From Spirochaetia bacterium (GTDB lineage: Bacteria > Spirochaetota > Spirochaetia > WTKD01 > G963693115), in NCBI GenBank assembly GCA_965226055.1, contig CBDDCA010000006.1, positions 258,251 to 322,250 on the forward strand: a DNA stretch of 64,000 nucleotides, written 5' to 3'. The notes under the pieces were generated by a model. It saw nothing but the letters and a program-made list of their open reading frames with translations. It had not been told where the DNA came from and did not search any database. Below are positions 1 to 26,866 of the stretch, one piece after another. Position numbers and translations under genes: made by a program. Numbering within the stretch: the first letter of the stretch is position 1; each line of letters starts with the position of its first letter.

Positions 1-1596
1 TGCACCAAGCCGTTCATTATCATTATTTATCGAAGCAAAAATATTATTCGCCTGTAGCTTTTGCCTATACTCTTCAGCAACATCTCTATACTGTTCTACA
101 ATAGGAATAATAACTACCTGTTCAGGAGCAAGCCATACAGGAAAAGCTCCCGAGTAATGCTCTATCAATACACCAAAAAATCGTTCCAAAGATCCCAGCA
201 ACGCACGATGAATCATATAAGGACGCTTTTTTTCTCCATCTTTATCAATAAAACTCATGTTAAATCGCTCAGGCAAATTAAAATCAAATTGAATAGTCGT
301 CATTTGCCATTCTCTTCCTAGCGCATCCTTAATTTTAAAATCTATTTTAGGACCATAGAAGGCCCCTCCTCCTTCGTCTATCTCATATTCAATATGTTCT
401 TCTTCTACTGCTTTCTTTAATGCGTCTGTAACCCTTTGCCAGTCATCATCCTTGCCTACCGCTTTTTTTGGTTTTGTTGCCAAAAAAGCCTTAATATCAG
501 AGAATCCTAAATCTTTCCAAATAGAATAAGAAAATCGTAACACTTCTTTTATCTCATTTTCTACTTGATCGGGAGTACAAAAGATATGAGCATCATCCTG
601 TGTAAAACCACGAACACGTAATAATCCATGCAATACTCCTCCTTTCTCATATCGATATACAGTACCAAGCTCTGCCCAACGTAATGGAAGCTCACGATAC
701 GATCGCATCTTATTTTGATATATCAGTATATGAAAAGGACAGTTCATAGGTTTCGCATAATAATCGCTTGCATCTAACTCCATAGGAGAATACATATTCT
801 CTTTGTAAAATTCAAGATGTCCACTTTTTTCCCATAACCAGCTTTTTCCTACATGTGGCGTAAACAGTATATCATAACCATTGTGAAGATGTCTTTCACG
901 CCAATAATCCTCCACAGTCACACGAATGCGAGCTCCTTTTGGATGCCAATAAATCAACCCTGCTCCTGCCTCTTCATGAATACTAAATAAATCAAGCTCT
1001 TTACCAATCTTCCTATGATCTCTTTTTTCTACTTCTTTTAACCACTCTAAATGCTGACGTAGCTCTTTTGGTTGAGTCCATGCAGTAGCGTATATCCTTT
1101 GTAACATAGGACGCTTTTCATCTCCACGCCAATACGCTCCTGCTACAGAAAGTAACTTACACGCCTTTGCATTCAAATACTTAGTACTAGGAACATGAGG
1201 CCCCTTACATACATCAACAAAATCGTATACTGTATAGGTACTCAACTCAGCATCATCATGAAACCCACTGATAAGCTCTTGCTTATATGGTTGCTGTTCA
1301 TACAACTTCATAATATCATCACGAGTATGTACCTGTTTTGTAAATACAGATTCTTCTTTTAGTATCTCACCCATAGTATCTTCTATCCGTACTAAATCAG
1401 CTTCAGTAAGCGAATGAGGGAGATCAAAATCATAGTAAAAGCCATTTTCTATGGGCGGACCAATAGCAGTCTTTGCCTCTGGAAACAGCTGTAGCACTGC
1501 TTTTGCCATAACATGAGCAAAACTATGGCGTATACGATACAATTGTTCTTCTATAGATAATTTTTTATATTCTGATTCATTTATGTTTTCTTCCAT
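1..1596 (-). CDS. thrS: threonyl-tRNA synthetase; the C-terminus runs off the left edge of the window
   Basis: My own translation of the minus strand from the ATG at 1596-1594 gives MEENINESEYKKLSIEEQLYRIRHSFAHVMAKAVLQLFPEAKTAIGPPIENGFYYDFDL. Further on it gives YQNKMRSYRELPLRWAELGTVYRYEKGGVLHGLLRVRGFTQDDAHIFC. These are the ThrRS editing-domain HxxxH and the class II catalytic motifs. The frame stays open to position 1, so it is absent from the ORF track. The protein starts directly at the editing domain, with no TGS domain. Confidence 0.93.
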   Translation of the reverse strand, partial: MEENINESEYKKLSIEEQLYRIRHSFAHVMAKAVLQLFPEAKTAIGPPIENGFYYDFDLPHSLTEADLVRIEDTMGEILKEESVFTKQVHTRDDIMKLYEQQPYKQELISGFHDDAELSTYTVYDFVDVCKGPHVPSTKYLNAKACKLLSVAGAYWRGDEKRPMLQRIYATAWTQPKELRQHLEWLKEVEKRDHRKIGKELDLFSIHEEAGAGLIYWHPKGARIRVTVEDYWRERHLHNGYDILFTPHVGKSWLWEKSGHLEFYKENMYSPMELDASDYYAKPMNCPFHILIYQNKMRSYRELPLRWAELGTVYRYEKGGVLHGLLRVRGFTQDDAHIFCTPDQVENEIKEVLRFSYSIWKDLGFSDIKAFLATKPKKAVGKDDDWQRVTDALKKAVEEEHIEYEIDEGGGAFYGPKIDFKIKDALGREWQMTTIQFDFNLPERFNMSFIDKDGEKKRPYMIHRALLGSLERFFGVLIEHYSGAFPVWLAPEQVVIIPIVEQYRDVAEEYRQKLQANNIFASINNDNERLGA

Positions 1597-1680: not shown

Positions 1681-1768
1681 TAGACTGATAGTAAATATGT
1701 ATAAAATGTTGTATAATTGAGTAAAGGAGGCTGGGCTAATCTAATTTTGCTTATCCTTGCCAACCCCT
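1681..1768 (+). mobile_element. about 90-bp remnant of the 3' end of an IS1595-family element, a direct repeat of 4841..4930
   Basis: 1681 tagactgatagtaaatatgtataaaatgttgtataattgagtaaaggaggctgggctaatctaattttgcttatccttgccaacccc aligns by eye with 4841 tagaccgatagcaaacatgtatatatgtgttgtaaaattggataaaggaggcagggttagtctaattttgcttatatccatgccaacccc. The second sequence is the tail of the degraded transposase gene at 4396..4930. Confidence 0.7.
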
Positions 1769-1790
1769 AAAATTATTAAAAGAGGTATAT

Positions 1791-4043
1791 ATGAAGTTAA
1801 ATATATTCTATTTATTTTTTATATTTCTTGTGTTTTCACTTTTTACTTGTGAAGATATAAAGGTTAATAGTAAGGAAAAAGCCACCGCACCAGCAGAGGC
1901 ACGCAGTGTTACAGCAAGCCACACCGATACAAGTATAACTATATCATGGCAAGCCCCTACCCTTACAAGCATACACACAAAAGCAAATGGAGAAAGGCTT
2001 ACAACGACAGATGTATCGTACAAAGTATACAGAGTAGCAAAAGGAAGTGATGCCCGAAGTATAGCCCAGATTAAAACAGCAGACACGAACCCGATAGCAG
2101 TAGCAAAAGGAACAACAAGCACAACTATAAGTAACCTTACTGAAAATACCACCTATGAAATAGTAGTACAATCAGTCAATGCAACAGATAGTACACAAGT
2201 CTCTACAGGCATGCGAATAGAAGTTACTACCCTTGCTACTAATCAAGCAACCGCACCAGCAGAGGCACGCAGTGTTACGGGAAGTCCTACCGATACCAGT
2301 ATAGGCATATCATGGCAAGCACCTGCCCTTACAAGCACACACAAAAAAGCAGATGGAGAAAGGCTCACAACAGCAGATGTATCGTACAAAGTATACAGAG
2401 TAGCAAAAGGAAGCAAAGCCCGCACAATAGCCCAGATTAAAACAGCAGACACAAACCCGATAGCAGTAGCAAAAGGAACAACAAGCACAACTATAAGTAA
2501 CCTTACTATAAATACTACCTATGAAATAGTAGTACAATCAGTCAATGCCACTGACCCAACAAAAATCTCTACAGGTACACTAATAGAAGTAACTACCAAT
2601 AGTCAAGCAACTGCACCAGCAGAGGCACGCAGTGTTACAGCAAACCACACCGATACCAGTACAACTATATCATGGCAACCCCCAATACTTACAAGCACAC
2701 ACAAAAAAGCAGATGGAGAAAGGCTCACAACGGCAGATGTATCGTATAAAGTATACAGAGTAGCAAAAGGAAAGAATGCCCGCACAATAGCCCAGATTAA
2801 AACAGCAGACACAAACCCAATAGCAGTTGCAAAAGGAATAACAAGCACAACTATAAGTAACCTTACTGGAAATACTCCCTATGAAATAGTAGTACAATCA
2901 GTCAATGCCACCGACCCAACAAAAACCTCTACAGGAGTACAAATAGAAATAACTACCAATAGTCAAGCAACTGCACCAGACGAGACACACAGTGTTACAG
3001 CAAGCCACACCGATACCAGTACAACTATATCATGGCAAGCCCCTACCCTTACAAGCAGTCACAAGAAAGCAGATGGAAGATGGCTCACAACAGCAGATGT
3101 ATCGTACAAAGTATACAGAGTAGCAAAAGGAAAGAATGCTCGCACAATAGCCCAAATTAAAACAGCAGACACGAACCCGATAGCAGTAGCAAAAGGAACA
3201 ACAAGCACAACTATAAGTAACCTTACTGGAAATACCACCTATGAAATAGTAGTACAATCAGTCAATGCTACCGACCCAACAAAAACCTCTACAGGAGTAC
3301 AAATAGAAATAACCACCCCAAGCCAAGCTACCATACCAGAAGAAATCCGCTTTTTAGGAAGAAGTCGAACCGATGACAGTATATCCCTATCATGGATATA
3401 TATTTATATTACTCCAGGCAAGAAAGCAACTGGACAAAAGCTTACAGCGGCAGATATATCGTATAAAATATATAGAGTAGCAAAAGGAAAGAATGCCCGC
3501 ACAGTAGCCCAGATTAAAACAGCAGACACAAACCCGATAACAGTAGCAAAAGGAATAACAAGCACAACTATAAGTAACCTTACTATAAATACTACCTATG
3601 AAATAGTAGTACAATCAGTCAATGAAACGGACACTACAAAAGTATCTACAGGAGTACGAATAGAAGCAAATACCGATAGTCAGGCAACCGCACCAGAAGA
3701 TACACAAAGTGTTGGAGTAGATACGACCACCGATGACAGTATAAGAATATCATGGGAAGCCCCTACCCTTACAAGCACACACAAAAAAGCAGATGGAGGA
3801 AGGCTCACAACAGCAGATGTATCATATAAAGTATACAGAGTAGCAAAAGGAAGGTATCCCCGCACAATAGCCCAGATTAAAACAGCAGACACGAACCCGA
3901 TAACAGTAGCAAAAGGAATAACCCACGCAACTATAAGTAACCTTAATGGAAATACTACCTATGAAATAGTAATACAATCAGTGAATGCAACGGACACTAC
4001 AAAAGTATCTACAGGAATACGATTAGAAGTAAATACCAAATAA
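1791..4043 (+). CDS. surface lipoprotein made of six tandem fibronectin-type-III-like repeats
   Basis: 750-aa ORF. The signal peptide carries a lipobox (FLVFSLFTC, Cys20). It is followed by six units of about 120 aa, each with the pattern ATAPAEARSVT..DTSxxISWQAP...YKVYRVAKG...TTYEIVVQSVNATD (the W/Y/Y-x-V FN3 pattern). An RBS-like aagagg lies upstream of the ATG. Confidence 0.9.
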   Translation: MKLNIFYLFFIFLVFSLFTCEDIKVNSKEKATAPAEARSVTASHTDTSITISWQAPTLTSIHTKANGERLTTTDVSYKVYRVAKGSDARSIAQIKTADTNPIAVAKGTTSTTISNLTENTTYEIVVQSVNATDSTQVSTGMRIEVTTLATNQATAPAEARSVTGSPTDTSIGISWQAPALTSTHKKADGERLTTADVSYKVYRVAKGSKARTIAQIKTADTNPIAVAKGTTSTTISNLTINTTYEIVVQSVNATDPTKISTGTLIEVTTNSQATAPAEARSVTANHTDTSTTISWQPPILTSTHKKADGERLTTADVSYKVYRVAKGKNARTIAQIKTADTNPIAVAKGITSTTISNLTGNTPYEIVVQSVNATDPTKTSTGVQIEITTNSQATAPDETHSVTASHTDTSTTISWQAPTLTSSHKKADGRWLTTADVSYKVYRVAKGKNARTIAQIKTADTNPIAVAKGTTSTTISNLTGNTTYEIVVQSVNATDPTKTSTGVQIEITTPSQATIPEEIRFLGRSRTDDSISLSWIYIYITPGKKATGQKLTAADISYKIYRVAKGKNARTVAQIKTADTNPITVAKGITSTTISNLTINTTYEIVVQSVNETDTTKVSTGVRIEANTDSQATAPEDTQSVGVDTTTDDSIRISWEAPTLTSTHKKADGGRLTTADVSYKVYRVAKGRYPRTIAQIKTADTNPITVAKGITHATISNLNGNTTYEIVIQSVNATDTTKVSTGIRLEVNTK
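1881..4037 (+). repeat. six tandem coding repeats with a period of about 360 bp and high DNA identity
   Basis: Repeat starts are recognisable at about 1881, 2248, 2608, 2968, 3328 and 3685, each reading gc[ac]ac[ct]gcaccagcagaggcacgcagtgttac or a variant. Unit 5 is the most diverged (WIYIYITPG replaces WQAPTLTSTH). Confidence 0.95.
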
Positions 4044-4395
4044 GTAGGAATAATGAAAATACTAATAAGTAATTGCATAAAGGTAAAATATTCTAAACGA
4101 TATACAGAAAGAACACATCCCAAGAACCATATACCGAGAGTAATATAGTGCGACATTTCACCAGTAAAATATTGAAAGAGGTAGAGTATCAAGTAACCGA
4201 ATACTTAAAAAGTATAGGAGTAAAAAATGATAGAGAAAAAAGACAGTTTTAGAGATGGAATGAAAAAAGCAGATAAAAGCGAAGACACTAAAGTTATAGA
4301 ACAGATATTAAATGAAGTAGGTAACTATTTAGTACAATTCGTTATGTGAAGTAAGTTGAGAAACAGCAACAAAATGGTATCATATATTTCGAGTA

Positions 4396-4930
4396 ATGAT
4401 AGCAAAAAAACTCACAGTATATGAAGTATTGATAAAAAGAGAAATAGATGAAAGTTATTTCGGAGGAAAAAGAAAAGGAAAACGAGGAAGAGGAGCAACA
4501 GAAAAAACAATAGTGCTTAGATTGTATAAAAGGAGTGACCATGTGCATACACTCACAATAAGTAATACAACGACTTGCAACTCTATAGTATCATACAGAA
4601 AAAATAGCTCCTCAGAGTAGTATCTATACAGACACCTCTCCGAGTGATAATATACTTGCTGTATCAGACTTTCAGCACTATCGCATAAATCATGCAAAGG
4701 AATTTGCACACAAGCAAAATCATATAAACGAGATAGAGAATTTTTGGAATCCAATCAAAGAGACATCTGAGAAGATACAATGGAATACAAAAAAACCATT
4801 TTGAATTATACTTAAAAGAATATGAATTTCGGTTTAATTATAGACCGATAGCAAACATGTATATATGTGTTGTAAAATTGGATAAAGGAGGCAGGGTTAG
4901 TCTAATTTTGCTTATATCCATGCCAACCCC
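4396..4930 (+). pseudogene. IS1595-family (ISXO2-like) transposase, C-terminal half, broken by frameshifts and stops
   Basis: Frame 1 reads REIDESYFGGKRKGKRGRGATEKTIVL. A second frame reads YTDTSPSDNILAVSDFQHYRINHAKEFAHKQNHINEIENFWNPIKE. A third frame reads LKEYEFRFNYRP. Together these follow the conserved IS1595 DDE transposase pattern (EIDExYxGG..GKRGRG ... TD ... HxxVNH ... N.IE.FW ... E.EFRFN.R) but need at least two frame changes. Confidence 0.8.
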
Positions 4931-4968
4931 ATATTATATTTTCGCCTATACAGTTATAATTTTTAGCA

Positions 4969-5002
4969 TTTCTGCTTATCTCTTAAAAGAGAAAAGCAGA
5001 AA
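4969..5002 (-). terminator. candidate hairpin downstream of the sugar ABC operon
   Basis: tttctgcttatctctt (4969-4984) pairs with aagagaaaagcagaaa (4987-5002) in a 16-bp stem with one mismatch. There is no clear U-run, so terminator function is uncertain. Confidence 0.35.
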
Positions 5003-5033
5003 CATGTGTATATGCATTAACAATGCATGAGAA

Positions 5034-5993
5034 TTACTGTAATGGGTATAGTAGCTTTTGCACTTCGGGAGTATCGATATTTTCAAGGCTTACATACGTA
5101 GCACCTGTATCGATTCTTGGATTTACGCTTTTTCCTTGTAGAGCATCGTATACTGACATAACGCCTTTATATCCCATTTGAAATGGATTTTGTACAACAA
5201 AGCCATTAATAACTCCACTTTGAAGCAAAGCTATTTCTTGCTCACTAGAATCAAATCCAACAAGAATAATATCCTCTCTTCCAATTTCCTGCAATCCTAA
5301 TGCCGCTCCTACCGCAGAACCTTCGTTTGCTGCAAAAATAGCTTTAAGATCTGGATTAGCTCGTACCATATCAACGATAAGATTAGCAGATTTATCATGA
5401 TCTCCTGCACCGTACACTGGCTCAAGAACAGTTATACCAGAATACTTTTTTAATTCCTGTAAAGCTCCATCTCTTCTGTCTATCCCTGTAGAACTAGTTG
5501 CATCATGAACAATAACGCCTACTTTTCCTTCTTCACCAATAAGAGTAGCAAGCTCTTTTGCTCCTATCGCTGCAGCATTTGCATTATCAGTAGCAACAAA
5601 ACTCAATGGAATGTCACTATCTACTCCAGAATCAAACATAACTACTGGAATACCTGCTGTATTTGCTTTTTCCACATACGGAATAAGAGCTTCCTTATCT
5701 AAAGCAGCAAGCAACAGACCATCAACTCTTGATGTAATAGCATTTTCTACCATATTGATTTGTACATCAATCATTGATTCGGTAGCAGGCCCCTCAAAAG
5801 TAACTCTAATGCCAAGTTCTTCTGCCGCAGTATCAGCTCCCAGCTTTACTGTTTGCCAAAATTCATGCTGAAACCCTTTACTGATAACAGCAATATATGT
5901 GTCATCATCAGACACAGACTCTTGATTTCCACCAGCAAAAAGCATACCAGTGAACACCAACAATAAAATAGTTGAAATAATGATTTTTTTCAT
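5034..5993 (-). CDS. sugar ABC transporter substrate-binding protein (RbsB/type I periplasmic-binding fold)
   Basis: 319 aa with an N-terminal signal peptide. The sequence ISKGFQHEFWQTV...GLLLAALD...IPVVMFDSGV is typical of the ribose/galactose-binding family. It is the first-listed gene of a three-gene operon with a permease and an ATPase. Confidence 0.85.
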   Translation of the reverse strand: MKKIIISTILLLVFTGMLFAGGNQESVSDDDTYIAVISKGFQHEFWQTVKLGADTAAEELGIRVTFEGPATESMIDVQINMVENAITSRVDGLLLAALDKEALIPYVEKANTAGIPVVMFDSGVDSDIPLSFVATDNANAAAIGAKELATLIGEEGKVGVIVHDATSSTGIDRRDGALQELKKYSGITVLEPVYGAGDHDKSANLIVDMVRANPDLKAIFAANEGSAVGAALGLQEIGREDIILVGFDSSEQEIALLQSGVINGFVVQNPFQMGYKGVMSVYDALQGKSVNPRIDTGATYVSLENIDTPEVQKLLYPLQ

Positions 5994-7026: not shown

Positions 7027-8547
7027 CTAATTTTCATGTTGCATATGACCAGTAGCATATAACATAATTTTTTCCTGTGTAATATCTTGTTTTTCTAATA
7101 TACCTGATACTTCTCCCGAACACATTACCAATACTCTATCACTCATCCCAACAATTTCACTTAAATCTGAAGATACCATTATGATAGAAAGCCCAGTATC
7201 AGTTAAAGAAGTAATAAGATCGTATATTTCACGTCTTGCTCCAACATCAATACCTCTTGTAGGCTCATCAAAAATCAAAACATCGCATTGCGTACACAAC
7301 CACCGAGCAATAATCACTTTTTGCTGATTTCCTCCACTTAAATAGCGTACAATCTGAGTTAAAGAAGGAGTTTTTATACGTAAAGAATCTACAAATTCTG
7401 TACAATGCTCTCTTGCAATATTTTTGTTAATGATCCCTATCTTTTTAGAATGTTCCTTTATGGTAGCAAGGATTATGTTTTCTTGTACATTGAGATTAAG
7501 AGCAAGTCCATTTTTTTTCCTATCTTCAGTCAGATATCCAATACCATGCCTTATTGCATCACGCGGAGTATTGATAGCAACTTCTTTAGAATGAACAAAT
7601 ACTTTACCACTATCCTTCGGATCTGCACCAAAGATAGCTCTCATTAACTCAGTACGACCAGCTCCCACTAAACCAGACACTCCTAGTATTTCTCCCTTAC
7701 ACAAAGAGAACGATATATTCTTTAAGTCAGGATTACGCTGTATATTTTCTACACGCAAAATTTCCTCTCCTCTATGAGGATGCCTCGTAGGAAACATATC
7801 AGTAAGCTCTCTTCCTACCATAAGATGTATAAGATGTTCAGTAGTAGTATCCGCATAGTGCAAAGTATCAATATACTGACCATCTCGAAATACAGTTACT
7901 CTGTCCGCAATTTCTTCCAGCTCCTTCAATTTATGAGAGATAAAAATAATTCCTTTTCCTTGCTCTTTTAGTCTACGTACTGTACTAAACAATACTTCTG
8001 TTTCTGCTTCACTTAATGTTGCTGTTGGCTCATCCATAATGAGAATATCACAAGACACTGAGATAGCTTTAGCAATCTCTACCATTTGCTGTTCTGCAAC
8101 ACTTAAAGTACTTACTTTTGCATATACATCAATACTATAATTAAGTAACTGCAATATTCTATTTGCTTCTTCATTTAATTTTTTCTCATTAAGCACATAC
8201 CGAGCATAGCGTGGTTCTCTCCCAATAAATATATTTTGTGCAACAGTAAGATGGGAGAAAAGATTGAATTCTTGATGAATAATACTAATACCAATTTCCT
8301 GTGCTACATGAGGATTAAGCACTTCAATTTTCTTACCACGATATATAATATCTCCTTTATCTGGTTGATATACTCCAGTAAGAATTTTCATAAGAGTAGA
8401 TTTGCCTGCCCCATTTTCACCTAAAATAGCATGTACTTCCCCTGCCTTTACATCTAAAGACACATTTTGCAACGCCTTTACTCCAGGAAAAAATTTAGAT
8501 ACATCTTGTACCTTCAACAGCATATCGCTTTTATTTTGTGCCATCAT
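7027..8547 (-). CDS. sugar ABC transporter ATP-binding protein with duplicated ATPase domains (RbsA/MglA-like)
   Basis: 506 aa. Walker A is GENGAGKST, followed by a signature/Walker B ILIMDEPT. A second half carries LSGGNQQK and LIFDEPTRGIDV. Confidence 0.92.
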   Translation of the reverse strand: MMAQNKSDMLLKVQDVSKFFPGVKALQNVSLDVKAGEVHAILGENGAGKSTLMKILTGVYQPDKGDIIYRGKKIEVLNPHVAQEIGISIIHQEFNLFSHLTVAQNIFIGREPRYARYVLNEKKLNEEANRILQLLNYSIDVYAKVSTLSVAEQQMVEIAKAISVSCDILIMDEPTATLSEAETEVLFSTVRRLKEQGKGIIFISHKLKELEEIADRVTVFRDGQYIDTLHYADTTTEHLIHLMVGRELTDMFPTRHPHRGEEILRVENIQRNPDLKNISFSLCKGEILGVSGLVGAGRTELMRAIFGADPKDSGKVFVHSKEVAINTPRDAIRHGIGYLTEDRKKNGLALNLNVQENIILATIKEHSKKIGIINKNIAREHCTEFVDSLRIKTPSLTQIVRYLSGGNQQKVIIARWLCTQCDVLIFDEPTRGIDVGARREIYDLITSLTDTGLSIIMVSSDLSEIVGMSDRVLVMCSGEVSGILEKQDITQEKIMLYATGHMQHEN

Positions 8548-8649: not shown

Positions 8650-9642
8650 CTATTTACTTGTGTATTTTATAGAAACCCATATCCGAAACGAACTACTTTT
8701 TCCGTTATATTTACCACTTCCTTGAAAGCTAATTGTATACAATTTCTGTAATAGCTTCCCTTTTGCTTTACCACTTATTGTACCAGAGCTAGTATCAAAA
8801 CCTAATCCTGTCTCATCGTTAATATCAGGAGAAATAGCATAGCGACCAGATATATCACTGGGATTTGCATCAAAACTCACCGATATATCAGTATCTTTGT
8901 CAGCAATAGCCATAATGAACGGTAAGCCATTATACGGTTCTATGGTAACAGCATCATTCCCGCTTGGAGTAAATACATAGCTCCAGCCAGGAAGTTTTAC
9001 ACTCGTAACACCTGAATTATCAAATATACCTTCTACTCTAATAGTATCTTGTATATCCCATTCCTCTAAATCATGCTTAAACCCAGTGGCTCCCTTAAAC
9101 ATATTAATCATATTATTGATAGTATTGTTTACTTTCCACGTTGATATATCTTGATTAAACTGTGTCGCTCCTGCAAACATACTGTTCATATTTTTCACTT
9201 TCTCTACTTTCCACACTGATATGTCTTGATCAAACTGTGTTGCTCCTGCAAACATACCACTCATATCGGTAACATTACTGACATTCCAGCTTGATATATC
9301 TCCATTAAAATGAGTATTTCCCTTAAACATATTGCTCATATCGGTAACATTACTGACATTCCAGCTCGATATATCTCCATTAAAATTAGCTAAATCTCCA
9401 TCACTACTAAATAAACCACTCAAATCTGTCATATTACTTATATCTATATTTGAGAGATCTGTTTCCCATCCATGAAATGAAACTTCACGTTTTATATTAT
9501 TAGCTAGTACTTGTTTATCCGATGGATGATAGACAAAAGACAAGTCTGTAGATTCCTGACTACAACTAAAAAGCAGTAGCAATCCCATTCCTATCATCCA
9601 TAGAAAATAATACTTATATGCTTGAGCATTACATTGTCTCAT
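8650..9642 (-). CDS. BspA-family / DUF285 leucine-rich-repeat lipoprotein, single-module paralogue of the giant gene's first module
   Basis: 330 aa. The lipobox is LLLFSCSQ. It contains 23-aa repeats of the form FNGDISSWNVSNVTDMSNMFKG.T., then GLGFDTSSGTISG (putative-Ig/He_PIG-like motif). It is collinear with residues about 25-340 of the 10605..19073 product. Confidence 0.85.
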   Translation of the reverse strand: MRQCNAQAYKYYFLWMIGMGLLLLFSCSQESTDLSFVYHPSDKQVLANNIKREVSFHGWETDLSNIDISNMTDLSGLFSSDGDLANFNGDISSWNVSNVTDMSNMFKGNTHFNGDISSWNVSNVTDMSGMFAGATQFDQDISVWKVEKVKNMNSMFAGATQFNQDISTWKVNNTINNMINMFKGATGFKHDLEEWDIQDTIRVEGIFDNSGVTSVKLPGWSYVFTPSGNDAVTIEPYNGLPFIMAIADKDTDISVSFDANPSDISGRYAISPDINDETGLGFDTSSGTISGKAKGKLLQKLYTISFQGSGKYNGKSSSFRIWVSIKYTSK

Positions 9643-9785
9643 AACTATTACACCAAATATACATTGATTACTACAGCTTGTACTTTAACTATAATTATTT
9701 TTACTAAATCTTACAGAGTAAAAAAACAATATGCTATTATTATACACTATATTAAAAAAATATGCAAAAATAGGTAATAAGTTGC

Positions 9786-9820
9786 CACGAGTTCAAGTAT
9801 TAAATGTGACAAAGGAGCAA
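9786..9820 (+). repeat. solo copy of the IS30-family left inverted repeat (copy A, diverged)
   Basis: cacgagttcaagtattaaatgtgacaaaggagcaa compares with the IRL of the intact element at 54784, cacgagttcaaggattaaatgcgacaaaggagcaa. No transposase gene is adjacent. Confidence 0.75.
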
Positions 9821-9930
9821 AAAAAGCGAAAATATAAAAAATACTGAATGTATCTCTTGCCTTTATTTCTTGAATTTGTAGCAGCTATCTTTTCTGTATA
9901 ACTGTGAGTAAGGTATTTTATAAGTGGCAA

Positions 9931-10536
9931 TTATATTCTACTGAATAAGATACTGAACAAAATACCAAATCCTGACAACATGATAGTCATTTGAATTCCA
10001 AAAAACCAGTACATAATAGTACTGTTTGTTTTTATCGATTCTTTCATAGATTTTATTTCTGTTGTCAAATTTTCCCGTACACTATTTATTTCTGTTGTCA
10101 AATTTTCCCGTACACTGCTTATCTCTGTTGTTAAGTTCTCCCGTATGCTGTTTATTTCTGTTGTTAAGTTCTCCCGTACACTGTTTATTTCTGTTGTTAA
10201 TTTCTTCTCTACACTGTTTATTTCTGTTGTCAAATTTTCCCGTACACTGCTTATCTCTGTTGTCAAATTCTCTCGTACGCTGTTTATTTCTGTTGTCAAA
10301 TTTTCCCGTACACTATTTATTTCTATTGTCAAATTTTCCCGTACACTGCTTATCTCTGCTGTTAAGTTCTCCCGTACACTGCTTATCTCTGCTGTTAAGT
10401 TCTCCCGTACGCTGTTTATTTCTGTTGTTAATTTCTTCTCTACACTGTTTATTTTTTCTAATAAAAAATCATATTGTGTAATTGGAGTTGCAAGCATTCC
10501 ATCTTCATTTGTAATTTTCTCTTGTACTGCTCTCAT
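9931..10536 (-). CDS. tail-anchored coiled-coil protein with 13 tandem 11-aa repeats (Bdr-like architecture)
   Basis: 201 aa. It reads LEKINSVEKKL followed by units of the form TTEINSVRENL, 13 units in total, then a C-terminal hydrophobic segment YWFFGIQMTIMLSGFGILFSILF. Confidence 0.8.
   Translation of the reverse strand: MRAVQEKITNEDGMLATPITQYDFLLEKINSVEKKLTTEINSVRENLTAEISSVRENLTAEISSVRENLTIEINSVRENLTTEINSVRENLTTEISSVRENLTTEINSVEKKLTTEINSVRENLTTEINSIRENLTTEISSVRENLTTEINSVRENLTTEIKSMKESIKTNSTIMYWFFGIQMTIMLSGFGILFSILFSRI
10033..10461 (-). repeat. 33-bp tandem coding repeat, about 13 units
   Basis: Read on the plus strand the unit is ttctgttgtcaaattttcccgtacactatttat, iterated with small variants. 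It encodes the 11-aa units. Confidence 0.95.
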
Positions 10537-10604
10537 AATTTTATTATATCATATTATTATCATTGAGTAAGTATGTAATCATTTGTAAGGTTGCAAATAA
10601 ACAA

Positions 10605-13600
10605 CTAGCGACAATTCCCCGCTGGAAGACACCATCCAGGCAAGTTTTTTACAGCTGTACCCTTAAACATATCTGTTTTTATCACACTGTTTGCTACATT
10701 CCAGTTACTCAAATTCTGATTAAAAACACTAGCATCAGCAAACATACTGCTCATATCGGTAACATTACTTACATTCCAATTCCCTATATCTTGATTAAAA
10801 ACATCAGCATCATAAAACATATACCTCATATTGGCAACATTACTTACATTCCAATTCCCTATATCCTGATTAAAAGCTTCAGCATCATAAAACATACTGT
10901 TCATATTGGTAACTTTACCTACATTCCATTTTGATATATCTCCATTGAAAAATTCTGTTTGATTAAACATATTGCTCATATCGGTAACTTTACTTACATT
11001 CCATAACGATACATCTCCATTAAAGTATTGTTTATCATAAAATAGCCCTCCCATGTCTGTTATGTTACTTGTATCTATCATGTTTAAGTTAGGGGCAAAT
11101 CCTTGTGCTTTTATCTCTGCTTCTATGGCTTCCTCTAACTTTTTTTTGTTTTGAGGAGTGTACTTGTATTCTATCGTAACTGATATTGTTTTTGATCTAC
11201 TGGCATCAGTATATGTATGTATTGCTTTCCCATCGCTCTTTTTACTGGTAAACTCTATAGTATAGGTCTTTGAAGCTGCTTTGGTAGGAGTACCTGATAT
11301 CTTCCCAGTATCAGCATCAAAGCTCAACCCTGTATCTGCTGTTATATCCGGACTTATACTAAAAATTCCTGCTATAGCGGGTGTTTTAGTAAGTGTTACT
11401 TCTTTATCTTTCGTTAATGGTACTCCTACATATGCCTTTACACTACCTCCTATACTAGCTCTACTTGCACTTATATTAAAATACCATGTAGGGAGTATTA
11501 CTACAGCTGTATGCTCAAACATATTTGTTTTACTCACAGTTTTATCCACATTCCATGTTTCAAGTTCTTTATTAAATACACTTGCTCCCTTAAACATATT
11601 GCTCATATCGGTAACTTTACTGACATTCCACCCTGTTATATCTTGATTAAACTTACTTGCATTAATAAACATACTACGCATATCGGTAACTTTACTGACA
11701 TTCCACCCTGTTATATCTTGATTAAACTCACTTGCCTTAAAAAACATACTGCTCATATTGGTAACGCTACTGACATTCCATCTTGATATATTTCCATTAA
11801 AATTAACTTCACTGGAAAATAGACTACTCATATCTTTTATTTTACTTGTATCTATCATAGTGAGATCGGGGGTATTTCCTTGTACAGTTATCTCTGTATT
11901 TATAGCCTGCTGTAATTCTGCTTTATTATTAGGAATATGCTTATACTCTTTAATAGTAACTAACACTTTTATAGTCCGCCTATCATCAATATATTTATGT
12001 ATGAGTGTTTTATCAGCCTCTTCACTTCTAAACTGTATGGTATACTCAGTCTGTGAAGTTACTGTGGTGGGAGTACCTGATATTATGCCAGTACTAGTAT
12101 CAAAGTTCAACCCTGTATTTGTTGTTATATTTGGACTTATACTAAAACTCCCTGTTATAACGGGCGTTTTGGTAAGTATTATTTTTTGACTGTCTAGGAG
12201 TGATAAATCTCTATAGACACTTATAGTAGTACTATTTGCACTTATACTAAAATACCATGTAGGCAACTTTTTTACTGCTGAAGCAAGAAACATATCTGTT
12301 TTTGTCACACCGCTATCTACATTCCAACTTTCAAGATCTTGGTTAAATGCATTTGCGTTATTAAACATAAAAAACATATTCGTAACACTACTGACATTCC
12401 AATTTGATATATCCCCATTAAATTTTTGTGCTCCTGCAAATATACTGCTCATATTGGTAACTTTACTTACATCCCATTTCGATACATTTCCATTAAAATG
12501 ATCTTTACTGGAAAATATATTACTCATATCTGTTATAGCACTCGTATCTATTATGTTTAGATTAGCGGTATTTCCTTGTGCATTTATCTCATCATCTACA
12601 GCCTTCTGTAATTCTGTTTTATCACTGGGCGTATACTTATACTGACTTATAGTTACATGTATCTCTATTGTCCGATCAGTATATGTATGTATTGTTTTCC
12701 CATTCTTTTCACTGGTAAACTGTATAGTATACTTAGTTTGTGAAGCTAATATAGTGGGAGTACCCGATATTGAGCCAGTGTTAGTATCAAAGTTCAACCC
12801 TGTATTTGTTGTTATATTTGGACTTATACTAAAACTCCCTGTTACATTAGACGTTTTAGTGAGTGTTATTGTTTCAGTGTTACTTAGCGATAAATCTTTG
12901 TATCCAGTTATAGTAGTTCTGTTTGCATTTATACTAAAATACCATGTAGGCAACTTCTTTACTACTGTACTTTCAAACATATTTGTTTTTATTACACTGC
13001 TTTTTACATTCCAGTTTTCCAGATTTGCACTAAACTTTGATGCAAAATTGAACATAGTTTCCATATTTGTAACTTTACTTACAGTCCAATTTTTTATATC
13101 TTGGTTAAAGCTTTGTGCAGATAGAAACATAGCTCTCATATTTATAACTTTACTTACAGTCCAATTTTTTATATCTTGGTTAAAGGCATGTGCTCCAGCA
13201 AATAAACTCTCCATATTTGTAACAGCACTTACATTCCATCCTGATATATCTCCATTAAATTTATTCGCATTCAAAAACATATTGCTCATATTTGTAACTT
13301 TACTTACATTCCATTTTGATATATCTCCATTGAAATTAGCTTTATCCTCAAATAGATTACTCATATCTGTTATAACACTTGTGTCTATTATGTTGAGATT
13401 AGCAGTATCTCCTTGTGCAGCTATCTCATCATCTACAGCTTTCTGTAACTCTGTTTTATTACTAGGAGTATGCTTATAACTTGTGGTAACTGATATTTTT
13501 ATTGTTCTATCAGTATATTTATGTGTCGCTGGATTACCTTTACTATCAGTAAAGCTACTGGTAAACTCTATAGTATAATCAGTCTTTGAAGCTGCTTTAG

Positions 13601-16600
13601 TAGGAGTTCCTGATATTGTGCCAGTGCTAGTATTAAAATCTAACCCTGTATTTACTGTTATATCTGGACTTATACTAAAACTTCCTGTTATATCAGGCGT
13701 TTTGGTAAAAGTTATTTCTTTATTTTTTGCAAGTGGAACATTTACATATGTATTTATACTACGATTACTTGCACTTATATTAAAATACCATGTAGGCAAC
13801 TTTGCTACTGCGGTATTCTTAAACATATCTGTTTTTGTCACACCACTTGCTACATTCCAGCTTTCAAGATCTTTTTCAAATGCATTTGCTCCACTGAGCA
13901 TACTACTCATATTGGTGACAGCATTTACATCCCATTCGGATATATCTCCATTGAAAGTAATATTATCCTTAAATAGATCACTCATATCTGTTATTTTACT
14001 TGTATCTATTATGTTGAGATTAGCTTCGTTTCCTTGTACATTTATCTCTGTAGTTATAGCTTGCTTTAATTCTGTTTTATTATTAGGAGTATGCTTATAC
14101 CTACGTATCTCTACCGATATTTTTATTGTCCTATCAGTATCAATATATTTATGTATTACTGTTCCATCTGTCTTTTTACTTGTAAACTGTATGGTATATT
14201 CAGTCTTTGAGATTGCTGTAAGAGGAGTACCCGATATTTTACCAGTGCTAGGATCAAAATCTAAACCTGTATTTTTTGCTATATCTGGACTAACGCTAAA
14301 ACTTCCTGTTATATTAGGTGTTTTGGTAAGGGTTATTTCTTTATCTGTTGCTAATGGTATGTTTTTATATGCAATTATCTTATTATCACTTGCACTTATG
14401 CTAAAATACCATGTAGGCAACTTTGCTACTGCGGTATTCTTAAATATATCTGTTTTTGTCACAGTCCCATCGCTTGCTACATTCCAATCTTCCAGATCTT
14501 GGTTAAATTTTGTCGCTCCCAAGAACATCTTGCCTATATCGGTAACGCTACTTATATTCCAGCTTGATATATCTTGATTAAACGCTGCCGCTGACGAAAA
14601 CATCTGATGCATATTCGTAACTTTTCCTACCTTCCAATTTGATATATCTTTATTAAAAATGGTTGCTCCCGAAAACATAGCTGTCATATTTGTAACTTTT
14701 CTTACATCCCAGCCCGACATATTGCTATTAAAATTTGCTGCTCCTAAAAACATTCGATTCATATCCGTAACTGCCCCTACATTCCACCCCGATATATCTT
14801 TATTGAAACTGGTTGCTCCCGAAAACATATTCCCCATATCATTCACATTTTGTACCTTCCAATTTGATATATCTTGATTAAAACTTGTCGCATTCCAAAA
14901 CATACCATTCATGTTAGTAACACTTTGTACCTTCCAGTTTGATATATCTTGATTAAAACTACCTGCATAATAAAACATACTGCTCATATCAATAACATTA
15001 CTTACATTCCAACCAGAAATATCCCCATTAAATGCAGCAGCTTGATTAAACATATGACTCATATCAGTAACATTACTTACATCCCACTCAGATATTTTAC
15101 CATTAAAAGTAGTATTACTATTAAATAATCCACTCATATCATCAATCTTACTAGTATCAATTATATTTAAGTCAGCAGTATTTCCTTGTAATCCTATCTC
15201 AGTATTTATATTGTTTATTAATTCTAATTTACCAGTAGGAGTATACTTATGCCCTATAGTAACTGTTATCGTTATTGTCCTATCAGTATAGGCATATATT
15301 GTTTTCCCATTCTTTTCACTGGTAAACTGTATGGTGTAAGGAGTTTTTGAAGCTACCTTTGTAGGAGTACCCGATATTGTCCCAGAGCTAGAATCAAAAC
15401 TCAAGCCTGTATTTGTTGTGATACTTGGACTTATACTAAAACTTCCTGCTATACTAGGTGTTTTGGTAACTTTTATTTCTTCACTTGCTCCTAATTTTAT
15501 ACGTGCTTGCCCTGTCAGAGCAGACTTATTTGCACTTATACTAAAATACCATGTAGGTAACTTTGCTACTGCGGTATTCTTAAACATATCTGTTTTTGTC
15601 ACAGTCCCATCGCTTGCCACCTTCCAGCTTTCAAGATCTTTGTCAAATGCACTTGCTCCTAAAAACATGCTACTCATATCAGCAACCTTGCTTACATTCC
15701 ATCCCGATACATTTTGATTGAAACTTGTTGCTCCTGAAAACATATTACTCATATCGGTAACGCTACTTACATCCCATCCCGATATATCTCCATTGAAATT
15801 AGCTTTATTCTCAAATATATTACTCATATCTGTTATATTACTTGTATTTATTATGTTTAAGTTAGCAGTATTTCCTTGTACTTCTATCTCCTTTTTTATG
15901 TTTTCCAATAACTCTGTTTTGTTGTTAGGAGTATAAAGATAAGTATTTATTGCTACTGATAGAGTGATGGATCTAGTATCGACATAAGTATATGTCGCTG
16001 GATTACCTGAGCTATCAGTAAAGCTACTGGTAAACTGTATGGTGTAAGAAGTTTGTGAAGCTGCCTCGGTAGGAGTACCCGATATTGTGCCAGTTCTAGT
16101 ATCAAAATCTAACCCTGTATTTGCTTTGATATCTGGACTTATACTGAAACTTCCTGCTATAAGGGGTGTCCTTGTCAGTATTATATCTGTTATTGGTACT
16201 TTTACTCCCTCATGTATACTATTGCTGCTTGCGCTTATACTAAAATACCATGTAGGTAATTTTGCTACTGCAGTATTCGTAAACATATTTGTTTTTGTCT
16301 TAAGGCTTGCTATATTCCAGTTTTCAATATCTCCATTAAATTTTATCGCCCCACTCAACATATTTTCCATATCAGTGACTTTACTTACATTCCACTCGGA
16401 TATATTTCCATTGAAAGTAGTGTTATCCTTAAATAGATCACTCATATCTGTTATGTTACTTGTATCTATTATGTTGAGATTAGCAGTATTTCCTTGTGCA
16501 TTTATCTCTGTAGTTATAGCTTGCTTTAATTCTGCTATATTATTGGGAGTATGCTTATATTTATGTATCTCTACTGATATTGTTATTGTTCTATCAGTAT

Positions 16601-19073
16601 AGGTATGTGTTGCTAAAGCACCTGTACTACCAGTAAAGCTACTGGTAAACTGTATGGTGTAAGAAGTTTGTGAAACTGCTTTGGTAGGAGTGCCTGATAT
16701 TGTCCCAGTGCTAGTATTAAAACTCAACCCTGTATTTGCTGTTATATCTGGACTAATACTAAAATTTCCTGCTATATCAGGCGTTTTGCTAAGGGTTATT
16801 TCTTCATTTTTTGCTAGCGGTATTCCTCTATATACATCTATACTAGCACTATTTGACTTTATGCTAAAATACCATGTAGGTAATTTTGCTACTGCGGTAT
16901 TCTTAAATATATCTGTTTTTGTCACAGCGATTGCTACATTCCAGCCTTCAAGATCTTGTGTAAACTTAGAAGCACCAGAAAACATGCTACTCATATTGGT
17001 AACCTTGCTTACATTCCATCCCGACACATTTTGATTGAAACTTGTTGCTCCTAAAAACATACTGCTCATATCGGCAACTTTACTTACATTCCATCCCGAT
17101 ACATTTTGATTGAAACTTGTTGCTCCTAAAAACATACTGCTCATATCGGTAACTTTACTTACATTCCATTTCGATATGTCTCCATTAAAACTTGTTGCTC
17201 CTGAAAACATACTGCTCATATCGGTAACTTTACTTACATTCCATTTCGATATATCTCCATTGAAAGTAGTGTTATCCTTAAATAGCCTACTCATATCTGT
17301 TATAAGACTCGTATTTATTATGTTTAGATTAGCAGTATTTCCTTGCAATCCTACCTCTGTTTTTATAGCTTCCAATAATTCTGCTTTATTTTTTGGCTTA
17401 TACTCTATAGTGAGCAATATTTCTATTGTCCTATCAGTATCAGTATAGGTATGTATTTCTGTCCTATCAGAGGAGGTACTTGTAAATGTTATAATATACT
17501 CAGTCTCTGAGGCTACCTTTGTAGGAGTACCTGATATTGTGCCAGTACTAGTATCAAAACTCAACCCTATACTCGTTATATCTGGCTTTATACCAAATTT
17601 TCCTGTTATATCAGGCGTTTTGCTAAGAGTTATTTTTTCATTATCTGCTAGTGATACCCCTTTATATACAGTGAGCTCATCAACATTAGCACTTATGCTA
17701 AAATACCATGTAGGCAATTTTGCTACTGCGGTATTTGTAAACATATCTTTTTTTGTCACAGTGCTTGCTACATTCCAGCCTTCAAGATCTTTATCAAATG
17801 CACTTGCTCCTGAAAACATACCATCCATATCTGTAATATTACTTACCTTCCACTTTGATATGTCTCCATTGAAACTTGTTGCTCCTGCAAACATATTACT
17901 CATATCGGTAACATTGCTTACATCCCACAATGATATATCTCTATTAAAGGTAGTGTCATCCTTAAATAGATCATGCATATCTTTTACAGCACTTGTATTT
18001 ATATAGTTAAAATTATCTACATCAGTATTTTTAATTGCTTCTATTAATTCGTTACGTGTTTTTACTATAGCAGTAAACACCGATACATATATAGAGAACT
18101 GGCTAGACTTTCCTAAGTAACTTCCATCCCCTGTAAAACGAATTGTATATTTTCTTCGTATACCATTTTCTTTATCCTTCAATAACCTTATTGCAGTGCC
18201 ATATATTTCTCCATTATTGTCCTTCATCTCCAATCCTGTATCTTCCGTAAGAGTTGTCGTTTTTCCATCAGTACTATTAAATTCAATACTCCATGTACCA
18301 GTAATTCCTGGAGGGCTTGTTGCAATATTGATTGGCATTAAAGGAACATTCAAGCTCGACTTGATTAACTGTTCATTATCATACCTATCTGTGATAGAGT
18401 TTCCATCACGCACAAGAGTAAATACATAATGCCAACTAGGAATACTTGTTGCAGGTACATTAGCTCCCTTAAATATATCTTGTATATTTACTGAATCTGC
18501 TACCTGCCATTTCTCTAAATCATACTGAAACACTGTTGCTTTATTAAACATGTTACTCATATCGGTAACCTTGCTCACATTCCAGCCTGATATATCTTGA
18601 TTAAAACTTGCTGCGGCTTCAAACATGTTACTCATATCGGTAACCTTGCTCACATTCCAGCCTGATATATTTTGATTAAAACTCGTTGCTCCCTTAAACA
18701 GATTACTCATATTAGTAACATTACTTACATTCCAGCCTGATATATTTCCATTAAAGGTAGTATTTCCTTCAAACATACTGCTCATATCAGTAATATTGCT
18801 TACATCCCAACTTGATATATCACCTGAAAAATTGGAAAATTCACCATCACCTTTGAATAAGCCGCTTATATCTTTTACTTTACTTGTATCTATAGTAGAG
18901 AGATCTGCTGCATTTCCGCGGGAGGCAATTTCTCGCTTAATGTTTTCAATAAGCGATTCTCTACTATCAGGAGAGTAAATAAAGTCTAAACTTAAAGATT
19001 TTTCTGGATCACAACCAGATACCAAAAAAGCGAAACATAAAAATAGCCAAAATATAAAAAATTGATACTTCAT
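10605..19073 (-). CDS. giant modular surface lipoprotein: 11 modules of DUF285/BspA LRR blocks, most followed by a putative-Ig (He_PIG-like) domain
   Basis: 2822-aa uninterrupted ORF. The lipobox is FLVSGCDP. There are eleven module starts of the type GNTANLNIIDTS.ITDMS.LF. Each is followed by 3-11 copies of the 23-aa unit F(N)xDIS.WNVS.VT.M..MF..A..F, then AVAKLPTWYFSISA and GLSFDTSTGTISGTPT. The last module ends with LPGWCLPAGNCR. Confidence 0.9.
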   Translation of the reverse strand: MKYQFFIFWLFLCFAFLVSGCDPEKSLSLDFIYSPDSRESLIENIKREIASRGNAADLSTIDTSKVKDISGLFKGDGEFSNFSGDISSWDVSNITDMSSMFEGNTTFNGNISGWNVSNVTNMSNLFKGATSFNQNISGWNVSKVTDMSNMFEAAASFNQDISGWNVSKVTDMSNMFNKATVFQYDLEKWQVADSVNIQDIFKGANVPATSIPSWHYVFTLVRDGNSITDRYDNEQLIKSSLNVPLMPINIATSPPGITGTWSIEFNSTDGKTTTLTEDTGLEMKDNNGEIYGTAIRLLKDKENGIRRKYTIRFTGDGSYLGKSSQFSIYVSVFTAIVKTRNELIEAIKNTDVDNFNYINTSAVKDMHDLFKDDTTFNRDISLWDVSNVTDMSNMFAGATSFNGDISKWKVSNITDMDGMFSGASAFDKDLEGWNVASTVTKKDMFTNTAVAKLPTWYFSISANVDELTVYKGVSLADNEKITLSKTPDITGKFGIKPDITSIGLSFDTSTGTISGTPTKVASETEYIITFTSTSSDRTEIHTYTDTDRTIEILLTIEYKPKNKAELLEAIKTEVGLQGNTANLNIINTSLITDMSRLFKDNTTFNGDISKWNVSKVTDMSSMFSGATSFNGDISKWNVSKVTDMSSMFLGATSFNQNVSGWNVSKVADMSSMFLGATSFNQNVSGWNVSKVTNMSSMFSGASKFTQDLEGWNVAIAVTKTDIFKNTAVAKLPTWYFSIKSNSASIDVYRGIPLAKNEEITLSKTPDIAGNFSISPDITANTGLSFNTSTGTISGTPTKAVSQTSYTIQFTSSFTGSTGALATHTYTDRTITISVEIHKYKHTPNNIAELKQAITTEINAQGNTANLNIIDTSNITDMSDLFKDNTTFNGNISEWNVSKVTDMENMLSGAIKFNGDIENWNIASLKTKTNMFTNTAVAKLPTWYFSISASSNSIHEGVKVPITDIILTRTPLIAGSFSISPDIKANTGLDFDTRTGTISGTPTEAASQTSYTIQFTSSFTDSSGNPATYTYVDTRSITLSVAINTYLYTPNNKTELLENIKKEIEVQGNTANLNIINTSNITDMSNIFENKANFNGDISGWDVSSVTDMSNMFSGATSFNQNVSGWNVSKVADMSSMFLGASAFDKDLESWKVASDGTVTKTDMFKNTAVAKLPTWYFSISANKSALTGQARIKLGASEEIKVTKTPSIAGSFSISPSITTNTGLSFDSSSGTISGTPTKVASKTPYTIQFTSEKNGKTIYAYTDRTITITVTIGHKYTPTGKLELINNINTEIGLQGNTADLNIIDTSKIDDMSGLFNSNTTFNGKISEWDVSNVTDMSHMFNQAAAFNGDISGWNVSNVIDMSSMFYYAGSFNQDISNWKVQSVTNMNGMFWNATSFNQDISNWKVQNVNDMGNMFSGATSFNKDISGWNVGAVTDMNRMFLGAANFNSNMSGWDVRKVTNMTAMFSGATIFNKDISNWKVGKVTNMHQMFSSAAAFNQDISSWNISSVTDIGKMFLGATKFNQDLEDWNVASDGTVTKTDIFKNTAVAKLPTWYFSISASDNKIIAYKNIPLATDKEITLTKTPNITGSFSVSPDIAKNTGLDFDPSTGKISGTPLTAISKTEYTIQFTSKKTDGTVIHKYIDTDRTIKISVEIRRYKHTPNNKTELKQAITTEINVQGNEANLNIIDTSKITDMSDLFKDNITFNGDISEWDVNAVTNMSSMLSGANAFEKDLESWNVASGVTKTDMFKNTAVAKLPTWYFNISASNRSINTYVNVPLAKNKEITFTKTPDITGSFSISPDITVNTGLDFNTSTGTISGTPTKAASKTDYTIEFTSSFTDSKGNPATHKYTDRTIKISVTTSYKHTPSNKTELQKAVDDEIAAQGDTANLNIIDTSVITDMSNLFEDKANFNGDISKWNVSKVTNMSNMFLNANKFNGDISGWNVSAVTNMESLFAGAHAFNQDIKNWTVSKVINMRAMFLSAQSFNQDIKNWTVSKVTNMETMFNFASKFSANLENWNVKSSVIKTNMFESTVVKKLPTWYFSINANRTTITGYKDLSLSNTETITLTKTSNVTGSFSISPNITTNTGLNFDTNTGSISGTPTILASQTKYTIQFTSEKNGKTIHTYTDRTIEIHVTISQYKYTPSDKTELQKAVDDEINAQGNTANLNIIDTSAITDMSNIFSSKDHFNGNVSKWDVSKVTNMSSIFAGAQKFNGDISNWNVSSVTNMFFMFNNANAFNQDLESWNVDSGVTKTDMFLASAVKKLPTWYFSISANSTTISVYRDLSLLDSQKIILTKTPVITGSFSISPNITTNTGLNFDTSTGIISGTPTTVTSQTEYTIQFRSEEADKTLIHKYIDDRRTIKVLVTIKEYKHIPNNKAELQQAINTEITVQGNTPDLTMIDTSKIKDMSSLFSSEVNFNGNISRWNVSSVTNMSSMFFKASEFNQDITGWNVSKVTDMRSMFINASKFNQDITGWNVSKVTDMSNMFKGASVFNKELETWNVDKTVSKTNMFEHTAVVILPTWYFNISASRASIGGSVKAYVGVPLTKDKEVTLTKTPAIAGIFSISPDITADTGLSFDADTGKISGTPTKAASKTYTIEFTSKKSDGKAIHTYTDASRSKTISVTIEYKYTPQNKKKLEEAIEAEIKAQGFAPNLNMIDTSNITDMGGLFYDKQYFNGDVSLWNVSKVTDMSNMFNQTEFFNGDISKWNVGKVTNMNSMFYDAEAFNQDIGNWNVSNVANMRYMFYDADVFNQDIGNWNVSNVTDMSSMFADASVFNQNLSNWNVANSVIKTDMFKGTAVKNLPGWCLPAGNCR

Positions 19074-26797: not shown

Positions 26798-26866
26798 AAA
26801 TTACTCCTTTAATTATTATTAGTATATCATATATGTACATATTATATTTTTATAACAAGAAAATAT

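Follow-up and report, generated by a model that had tools for sequence, protein, structure and literature searches.

In a 64,000-nucleotide (nt) stretch of DNA from a Spirochaetia bacterium (contig CBDDCA010000006.1; hereafter the window, to which all unlabelled coordinates refer), a gene for a lipoprotein built of FN3 repeats lies between the threonyl-tRNA synthetase gene thrS and a ribose-type ATP-binding cassette (ABC) operon, and is bracketed by the decayed right ends of two insertion sequences (IS) in the same orientation. The original prediction read this 3.2-kb segment as a unit that arose through IS-mediated capture or through recombination of two IS copies. Our comparisons point instead to two independent IS insertions beside a resident, fast-evolving FN3 gene as the best explanation of the bracket (probability roughly 0.75), a history that the sequences support better than capture of the gene as a unit. 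The arrangement is real and old, and looks like ordinary genome wear, with no new mobile unit or mechanism behind it.

Two decayed IS1016-subgroup elements flank the FN3 gene

Both tails are right ends of IS1595-family elements of the IS1016 subgroup, and both point the same way. Scar A, upstream of the FN3 gene (1676–1767, + strand; 92 nt), and the tail of copy B, downstream of it (4836–4930; 95 nt), are 83–84% identical with two small indels. With scar A as a blastn query against the 64-kb window, copy B was recovered at E = 1e-23 and the next match at E = 0.05, and in the window the terminal motif TGCCAACCCC, with TCTAATTTTGCTTAT directly before it, is found at these two sites only. Scar A translates as NYRLIVNMYKMLYN, a stop and VKEAGLI, then TAA, and matches the C termini of two intact transposases, P0001 and P0002 (...EFRFNYRPI(A/T)NMYKVLYNW(I/V)(K/Q)EAGLV; tblastn E = 8e-6 to 2e-5). 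It retains the last 22 transposase codons (1676–1741, with a tryptophan codon turned into the stop TGA), the natural stop codon TAA (1742–1744) and a right terminal repeat of about 23 nt ending in TGCCAACCCC at 1767; a deletion has taken all sequence 5' of the EFRFN motif as well as some 35 bp of native flank. The two sites, their IS1595 identity and their shared orientation had been predicted correctly, but the tails start 5 nt earlier than proposed (at 1676 and 4836), scar A ends at 1767 and the gap to the ATG of the FN3 gene is 23 nt, not 22.

Copy B (4217–4930, + strand) is a full-length, dead element of about 714 bp, whose transposase pseudogene runs from about 4260 to 4907 and whose right inverted repeat ends at 4930. 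Its stitched translation matched the Pfam family DDE_Tnp_IS1595 (PF12762) at 1.1e-18 (68 bits against a cut-off of 27), and at least three frame changes plus several in-frame stops bear out the earlier description of the second tail as the end of a frameshifted transposase gene. Over 551 bp, copy B has 85.5% nt identity to an intact IS in a close relative (locus L081, 9954–10680), and the alignment with that element takes in the 5' untranslated region and the start codon of copy B (ATG near 4260). Copy B has a degenerate left inverted repeat (GGAGTAAAAAATGATAGAG, 7/14 matching); its outermost 12 nt match poorly, and the left boundary is placed to within a few bp. The intact element in the relative is 727 bp long and encodes a 218-amino-acid (aa) transposase with PF12762 only; the gene extends to within 25 nt of the right end of the element, and the inverted repeats read GGGGCTGACCCA at both ends (12/14 matching). 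Right ends read GGGGCTGGCATGGA in the scars of the relative and GGGGTTGGCA(A/T)GGA in the window.

The nearest intact transposases to copy B (209–218 aa) are P0002, at 72% identity, and P0001, at 66%; P0001 and P0002 match the NCBIfam model transpos_IS1595 (NF033547) with 162 and 135 bits, respectively, against a cut-off of 75. The elements add new members, from an uncultured spirochaete lineage, to a known IS subgroup and comprise two variants, one of them intact in the relative. P0002, the closest transposase and one from the window's own genome, is missing 8–9 residues of a GKRGRGAxxK stretch that is present in P0001 and copy B; judged by this gap, the P0002 copy, too, may be defective. Four sequences make up the P0001 cluster, a size that suggests several near-identical active copies. 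The intact IS of the relative adjoins a DNA methyltransferase gene (L081 8584–9858), beyond which lies the gene for a zinc-ribbon IS1595-family transposase (293 aa, 7548–8429); L081 7548–10680 is an IS-rich spot.

There is next to no probability that the two 90-bp sequences resemble each other by chance, or that they are a native regulatory repeat with no link to an IS. The AT-richness of the region speaks for such a reading, and nothing else does; it is refuted by the E value of 1e-23, by the in-frame transposase C terminus in both sequences and by the continuity of the B tail with the pseudogene. A non-IS regulatory repeat is also ruled out by the alignment to the right end of the 727-bp IS and by the absence of the sequence from the regions upstream of other FN3 genes.

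Both insertions predate the split of two genomes

The only close relative found carries a collinear locus (L082), on the same contig as the intact IS. Its thrS (L082 7967–9637) is 97.5% identical to that of the window at the nt level, and its rbs operon is collinear and 94.6% identical. Four flanking genes have a synonymous divergence (dS) of 0.105–0.113 between the two genomes, and the ratio of nonsynonymous to synonymous divergence (dN/dS) of the flanking housekeeping genes is 0.02–0.10. The order thrS, scar, FN3 gene, scar, rbsB is the same in both, and the right junctions are identical: CCCC/TAAAATTATTAAAAGAGGTATATATG upstream (short form CCCC/TAAAATTATTAAAAGAGG) and CCCC/ATATTATAT downstream. 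The shared order and right junctions place both insertions before the two genomes diverged. The original prediction had raised the possibility that in relatives no such block separates thrS from the rbs operon; the only close relative has the complete block in place, with scars at the same junctions, which makes the bracket old and inherited vertically. Between the genomes, the identity of orthologous scars is 88% for A and 92% for B, which is the expectation for neutral DNA at a dS of about 0.11. The 12% divergence of scar A from its positional orthologue had at one point been taken as too high for orthology, an objection that was dropped once the flanking dS stood at 0.11.

The elements have since decayed along different paths. 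In the window, the upstream copy was cut down by a single deletion that took 35 bp of native flank and everything up to the EFRFN codons; the upstream remnant of the relative (L082 9673–9977, 305 bp) retains its two ends along with the start of the transposase gene and has three internal deletions. Downstream, the remnant in the relative lacks its left end, deleted between two GCGA tetranucleotides, and another 234 bp internally, and copy B in the window keeps both of these regions. The TTGGA filler at 1671–1675 was likened to the sequence that follows the junction of the 234-bp deletion, a match of about 6 nt that is too short to interpret.

Within the relative, the two tails are identical (92/92), and the remnants, which have the 234-bp internal deletion in common, show 95% identity over 212 bp; the window pair stands at 84%. 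We infer from these patterns that gene conversion among IS copies has occurred, independent identical deletions being an unlikely alternative. Conversion would be needed either way, because copy B of the window does not have the 234-bp deletion: the deletion was copied between the scars of the relative, or copy B was repaired from another genomic copy. The locus offers a dated example of IS decay, with different deletions in two lineages and gene conversion between scars.

The bracketed gene encodes a fast-evolving FN3-repeat protein, probably a lipoprotein

As had been proposed, a six-repeat FN3 lipoprotein gene lies between the tails. The gene (1791–4043, + strand; 750 aa) has Pfam fn3 matches in six stretches (6.7e-28) and a tandem DNA array at 1879–4039 (360 bp x 6.0, 84% match; TRF) that encodes six units of about 120 aa. 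A database protein from the window's own genome, P0122, is 100% identical to its product. Its N terminus, MKLNIFYLFFIFLVFSLFTC followed by ED, looks like a spirochaetal lipoprotein signal, with a signal peptide and, as read from the sequence, a probable lipobox LFTC with Cys20; the N termini of paralogues end in ISAC followed by E. Neither the FN3 unit nor the protein matched PDB sequences or NCBIfam models.

The suggestion that repeat number can vary is borne out by the orthologue in the relative (P0121; 1111 aa, 80% identical), which has nine units against six in the window. Edge units are orthologous, with DNA identities of 86% for the first window and L082 units (W1/L1), 90% for W5/L8 and 89% for W6/L9. 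Inside the L082 array, L3 and L5 are 99% identical, marking a recent two-unit (720-bp) duplication, and L3 and L4 are 96% identical, marking internal units that evolve in concert. The two-unit tandem duplication covers units L3–L6 (L082 10823–12262; 95–99% identity) and represents a very recent expansion.

The edge units have a dS of 0.13–0.17 and a dN/dS of 0.67–0.75. All length differences between the two FN3 genes are in frame. Because these length changes kept the frame while the adjacent 650-bp transposase gene collected frameshifts (at least three frame changes), the FN3 gene appears to be kept open by selection, its sequence being under relaxed or diversifying selection. Its repeat number of six versus nine and its dN/dS of about 0.7 beside slow housekeeping genes make it a plausible variable surface antigen or adhesin.

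A foreign origin was considered on the basis of composition and rejected: overall G+C is 0.40 against 0.35, but G+C at the third codon position is equal (0.26 in the FN3 gene, 0.21–0.26 in its neighbours), and the difference reflects the amino-acid content of a Thr/Ala-rich protein. Elsewhere in the window, an open reading frame (ORF) of 1571 aa (56191–60906) has a lipoprotein-like N terminus, many FN3-like modules and C-terminal DUF285 repeats. One of its modules (about 59520–59819) has 62–71% DNA identity to the 360-bp unit, which suggests that the unit came from the stock of FN3 modules already in the genome. About 20 FN3 paralogues are present in these genomes, the search returned 22 homologues, and no IS sequence was found near the two paralogues examined in the relative (L164 and L165).

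Independent insertions or capture as a unit

The geometry of the bracket would also fit a pseudo-compound transposon in which two direct IS copies picked up the FN3 gene and brought the 3.2-kb block to its present place as a unit, with the scars as its remains: two same-orientation IS1016-type elements surround a single passenger gene, and elements of this subgroup do form such structures, as in Tn7560, with two direct ISApl4 copies that have no individual target duplications (PMC12561309). No empty-site relative that could speak against capture was found among the collections scanned. The ThrS scans reached at best 66% aa identity in species-representative genomes and 64% in JGI metagenomes, with no synteny and no empty site; the best named ThrS relatives were Spirochaetaceae metagenome-assembled genomes at 66% aa identity. 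By tblastn, no rbs or FN3 neighbour of thrS was present in the first 80 ThrS loci, and at the locus of an RbsB relative of 77% identity (L163), thrS and FN3 genes are not adjacent and there is no synteny.

We nevertheless judge capture improbable. The block occupies the identical chromosomal site in both genomes and no other context among the 22 homologues. The third-position G+C of the gene equals that of its neighbours, and its dS (0.13–0.17) lies near the 0.11 of the flanking genes. The FN3 module and its many paralogues are native, and the paralogues examined have no IS. Each IS matches at six of eight positions across its own flanks, with the 8-mers TAAAAAAA and TAAAATTA at the upstream scar of the relative and AAAGTATA and ATATTATA at copy B of the window (P of about 0.012 each at a fixed boundary), against three to four of eight for the outer flanks of the IS pair. 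The 5' parts of the bracketing elements cannot be aligned with each other: the 5' 120 bp of the upstream scar in the relative are 92–96% identical to the L081-type IS and give no blastn match to copy B, and the two elements were probably different variants. Taken together, these findings do not support an IS-made unit, whether formed by capture or by recombination of two IS copies.

Several observations limit the account of two independent insertions beside a resident, fast-evolving gene that is still expressed. Later conversion by other IS copies could explain why the 5' parts of the scars differ. The putative target duplications are degenerate (6/8) and lie in AT-rich DNA, the left boundaries of the IS are uncertain by 1–2 bp, and the intact L081 copy itself shows no duplication (3/8). 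A dN/dS of about 0.7 also fits weak constraint. With one close relative only, the state before the two insertions is a reconstruction, and so is the gene's resident status. Finally, a scan for the sigma-70 consensus on the + strand of 1500–1790 gave no promoter match.

Independent insertion remains our preferred account, and it would have proceeded as follows. A resident gene for an FN3-module surface lipoprotein would have occupied the space between thrS and the ribose-type ABC operon. Before the genomes split, two IS1016-subgroup elements (about 715–727 bp, encoding a transposase of about 215 aa, with ends of the form GGGG(C/T)TG...) would have inserted in the AT-rich intergenic DNA, most likely in separate events and both oriented like the gene: one came to lie 23 bp ahead of the ATG, the other between the stop codon and a hairpin shared with the rbs operon. 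Point mutations, frameshifts and deletions would then have worn down the copies lineage by lineage, the scars would have exchanged sequence by conversion with each other or with other genomic copies, and the repeat number would have shifted through unequal recombination among the 360-bp units.

Transcription of the FN3 gene

With the upstream IS inserted 23 nt from the ATG, immediately 5' of the AAGAGG ribosome-binding site, FN3 mRNA would have to start in scar A or cross it. This agrees with the earlier proposal that transcription starts in, or passes, the IS remnant, given that scar A adjoins the ribosome-binding site. We infer that the gene is still expressed, because its ORF stayed open and in frame in both lineages. 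The mRNA would begin either inside the upstream scar or at a native promoter beside thrS with read-through. A candidate native −10-like TATAGT (about 1628–1633, + strand) lies beside thrS and is conserved in both genomes; the + strand promoter scan of L082 reported TTTCCA-18-TATAGT at 9572–9601, the window counterpart of which falls under the scan threshold. No terminator-like site was found on the + strand upstream of the FN3 gene in the window or L082 scans, nor any stable structure in the FN3 leader (z = +1.5), and read-through is therefore feasible.

It is possible, although in our view doubtful, that the 92-bp tail was instead exapted as the promoter of the lipoprotein gene and that the trimming deletions were selected for register. 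The tail is the only upstream IS segment kept in both lineages and ends 23 nt from the ATG, and the gene is intact although the IS cut it off from its native upstream region. A perfect TATAAT at 1712–1717 of scar A, 74 nt before the ATG, is found in three of the four tails, and the same TTGTATAAT stands about 60 nt upstream of the ATG of an FN3 paralogue in the relative (L165). A second candidate spans the junction, TTGCTT-15 nt-TAAAAT, with its −35 in the IS end and its −10 in the flank. However, the consensus scan was negative on the + strand, the best −35 of the TATAAT matches at 3/6 positions, and the hybrid spacer is 15 nt against the 16–18 nt expected of a sigma-70-like pair. The TATAAT is explained as conserved Tyr-Asn codons of the transposase, the native TATAGT is conserved in both genomes and read-through is unblocked. 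Moreover, a 92-bp scar at a dS of about 0.1 needs no selection to survive, and the downstream scar, which drives no gene, persists too.

An extended form of this idea would have the upstream tail exapted as promoter or 5' leader and the converted direct repeats serve as recombination handles for excision, amplification or exchange of the FN3 cassette. This we regard as a long shot; if true, the scars would add an on/off or copy-number layer to the variation that arises from repeat expansion.

The best promoter-like match of the region, TTTATA-17-TATAAT (10/12), is on the minus strand inside scar A (1705–1677); it faces thrS and lies about 80 nt from the ATG of that gene. This minus-strand site recurs in the scar of the relative (L082 9915–9887), about 325 nt from thrS.

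The surrounding locus

On the left, the block is bounded by thrS (1–1596, minus strand), of which the window holds the first 532 codons (Pfam tRNA-synt_2b, tRNA_SAD and HGTP_anticodon; dN/dS 0.04, dS 0.113). The remaining native DNA between thrS and the FN3 gene (1597–1670) is collinear with L082 up to window position 1670 and L082 9637, where homology ends. Between scar A and the ATG lies a native 23-nt leader (1768–1790, + strand) with the ribosome-binding site AAGAGG at 1780–1785, identical to L082 9978–10000. Native 3' intergenic DNA extends from the FN3 stop codon to copy B (4044–4216); its first part, 4044–4153, is collinear with L082, and no hairpin was found in 4044–4216, where folding was no better than that of shuffled sequences (z = +0.8).

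On the right, the boundary gene is rbsB (5034–5993, minus strand), which encodes a ribose-type periplasmic binding protein (Pfam Peripla_BP_4, 2e-60), is collinear with L082 and is the last gene of the ABC operon (8547–5034, minus strand). Between copy B and the rbsB stop codon, a strong hairpin at 4966–5007 folds with −17.5/−18.6 kcal/mol (z = −4.3/−5.6), a stability that none of 200 shuffles equalled. The hairpin has no T-run, is kept in L082 with few substitutions and is probably a shared bidirectional terminator of the convergent FN3 and rbs units. Copy B sits between the FN3 stop codon and this hairpin, which before that insertion would probably have ended FN3 and rbs transcripts alike. 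Neither an Rfam nor a tRNA scan of the whole window gave a match.

Other repeat families are present in the window. Five + strand copies of a 63-nt direct repeat (GATCACGAGTTCAAGGATTAAATGCGACAAAGGAGCAAAAAA...; 75–95% identity) occur at 9783–9845, 26864–26926, 44045–44107, 54281–54343 and 54781–54843, all intergenic, upstream of minus-strand genes starting at 9642, 26797, 43990 and 54195 and of a plus-strand gene at 54892. Two of the copies lie within longer duplications (26883–27182 versus 54309–54608, 94%; 43066–43365 versus 44195–44494, 95%), and the family has no match in Rfam. A TTCAAG..TTA motif upstream of the FN3 paralogues at L164 and L165 is loosely like the 63-nt repeat. A cluster of DUF285 (BspA-like leucine-rich repeat) genes covers 8650–19073 on the minus strand and includes a 2822-aa ORF (10605–19073) made of many 75-nt and roughly 620–850-nt repeat families; a 201-aa ORF at 9931–10536 contains a 33-bp tandem repeat of about 12 copies (9954–10514). 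The relative has the same cluster arrangement (L082 17579–23336).

Comparison with known systems

Elements of the IS1016 subgroup span about 700–745 bp in ISfinder; their AT-rich target-site duplications are 7–9 bp long. ISApl4 of Actinobacillus pleuropneumoniae, IS1016 of Neisseria and ISMha3 of Mannheimia share with the elements described here a DDE_Tnp_IS1595 transposase of about 215 aa without an N-terminal zinc ribbon, a length of about 715–727 bp with the gene running almost to the right end, insertion in AT-rich intergenic DNA and inverted repeats that start GGGGCTG (GGGGTTG in the window). The spirochaete elements differ in having 45–50% aa identity to the named Neisseria and Pasteurellaceae elements and an uncultured spirochaete as host; both window copies are dead, with no clean 8-bp target duplication. 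By comparison, ISApl4 is 712 bp long with a 654-bp tnp gene, has the inverted repeat GGGGCTGTACTAGA, generates 8-bp AT-rich duplications and inserts mostly in intergenic DNA (PMC12561309).

The closest structural parallel to the bracket, Tn7560, is a pseudo-compound transposon of two directly oriented ISApl4 copies that are intact, near-identical and active; it carries foreign resistance genes and was shown to move (PMC12561309). The locus described here resembles it in having two same-orientation IS1016-type elements around passenger DNA. Here, however, the copies are decayed with unlike 5' parts, and the passenger is native in composition, has paralogues and occupies one fixed chromosomal site.

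Outward or hybrid promoters of IS1, IS2, IS10 and ISAba1 drive adjacent genes. As in those systems, an IS end lies directly upstream of the ribosome-binding site of an intact gene, in the orientation needed for read-out; unlike them, the + strand consensus scan is negative here and read-through from a native promoter is equally possible.

Tandem-repeat surface proteins, among them the streptococcal alpha C and Rib proteins and the Vsa proteins of mycoplasmas, vary in repeat number between strains. The FN3 lipoprotein differs from these in that its repeat is an FN3 domain with no sequence match to a solved structure or NCBIfam model, and in that the comparison is between two genomes. What it shares with them is an architecture in which 360-bp in-frame repeats make up most of the lipoprotein, in six versus nine copies, with internal units that evolve in concert and edge units that stay stable.

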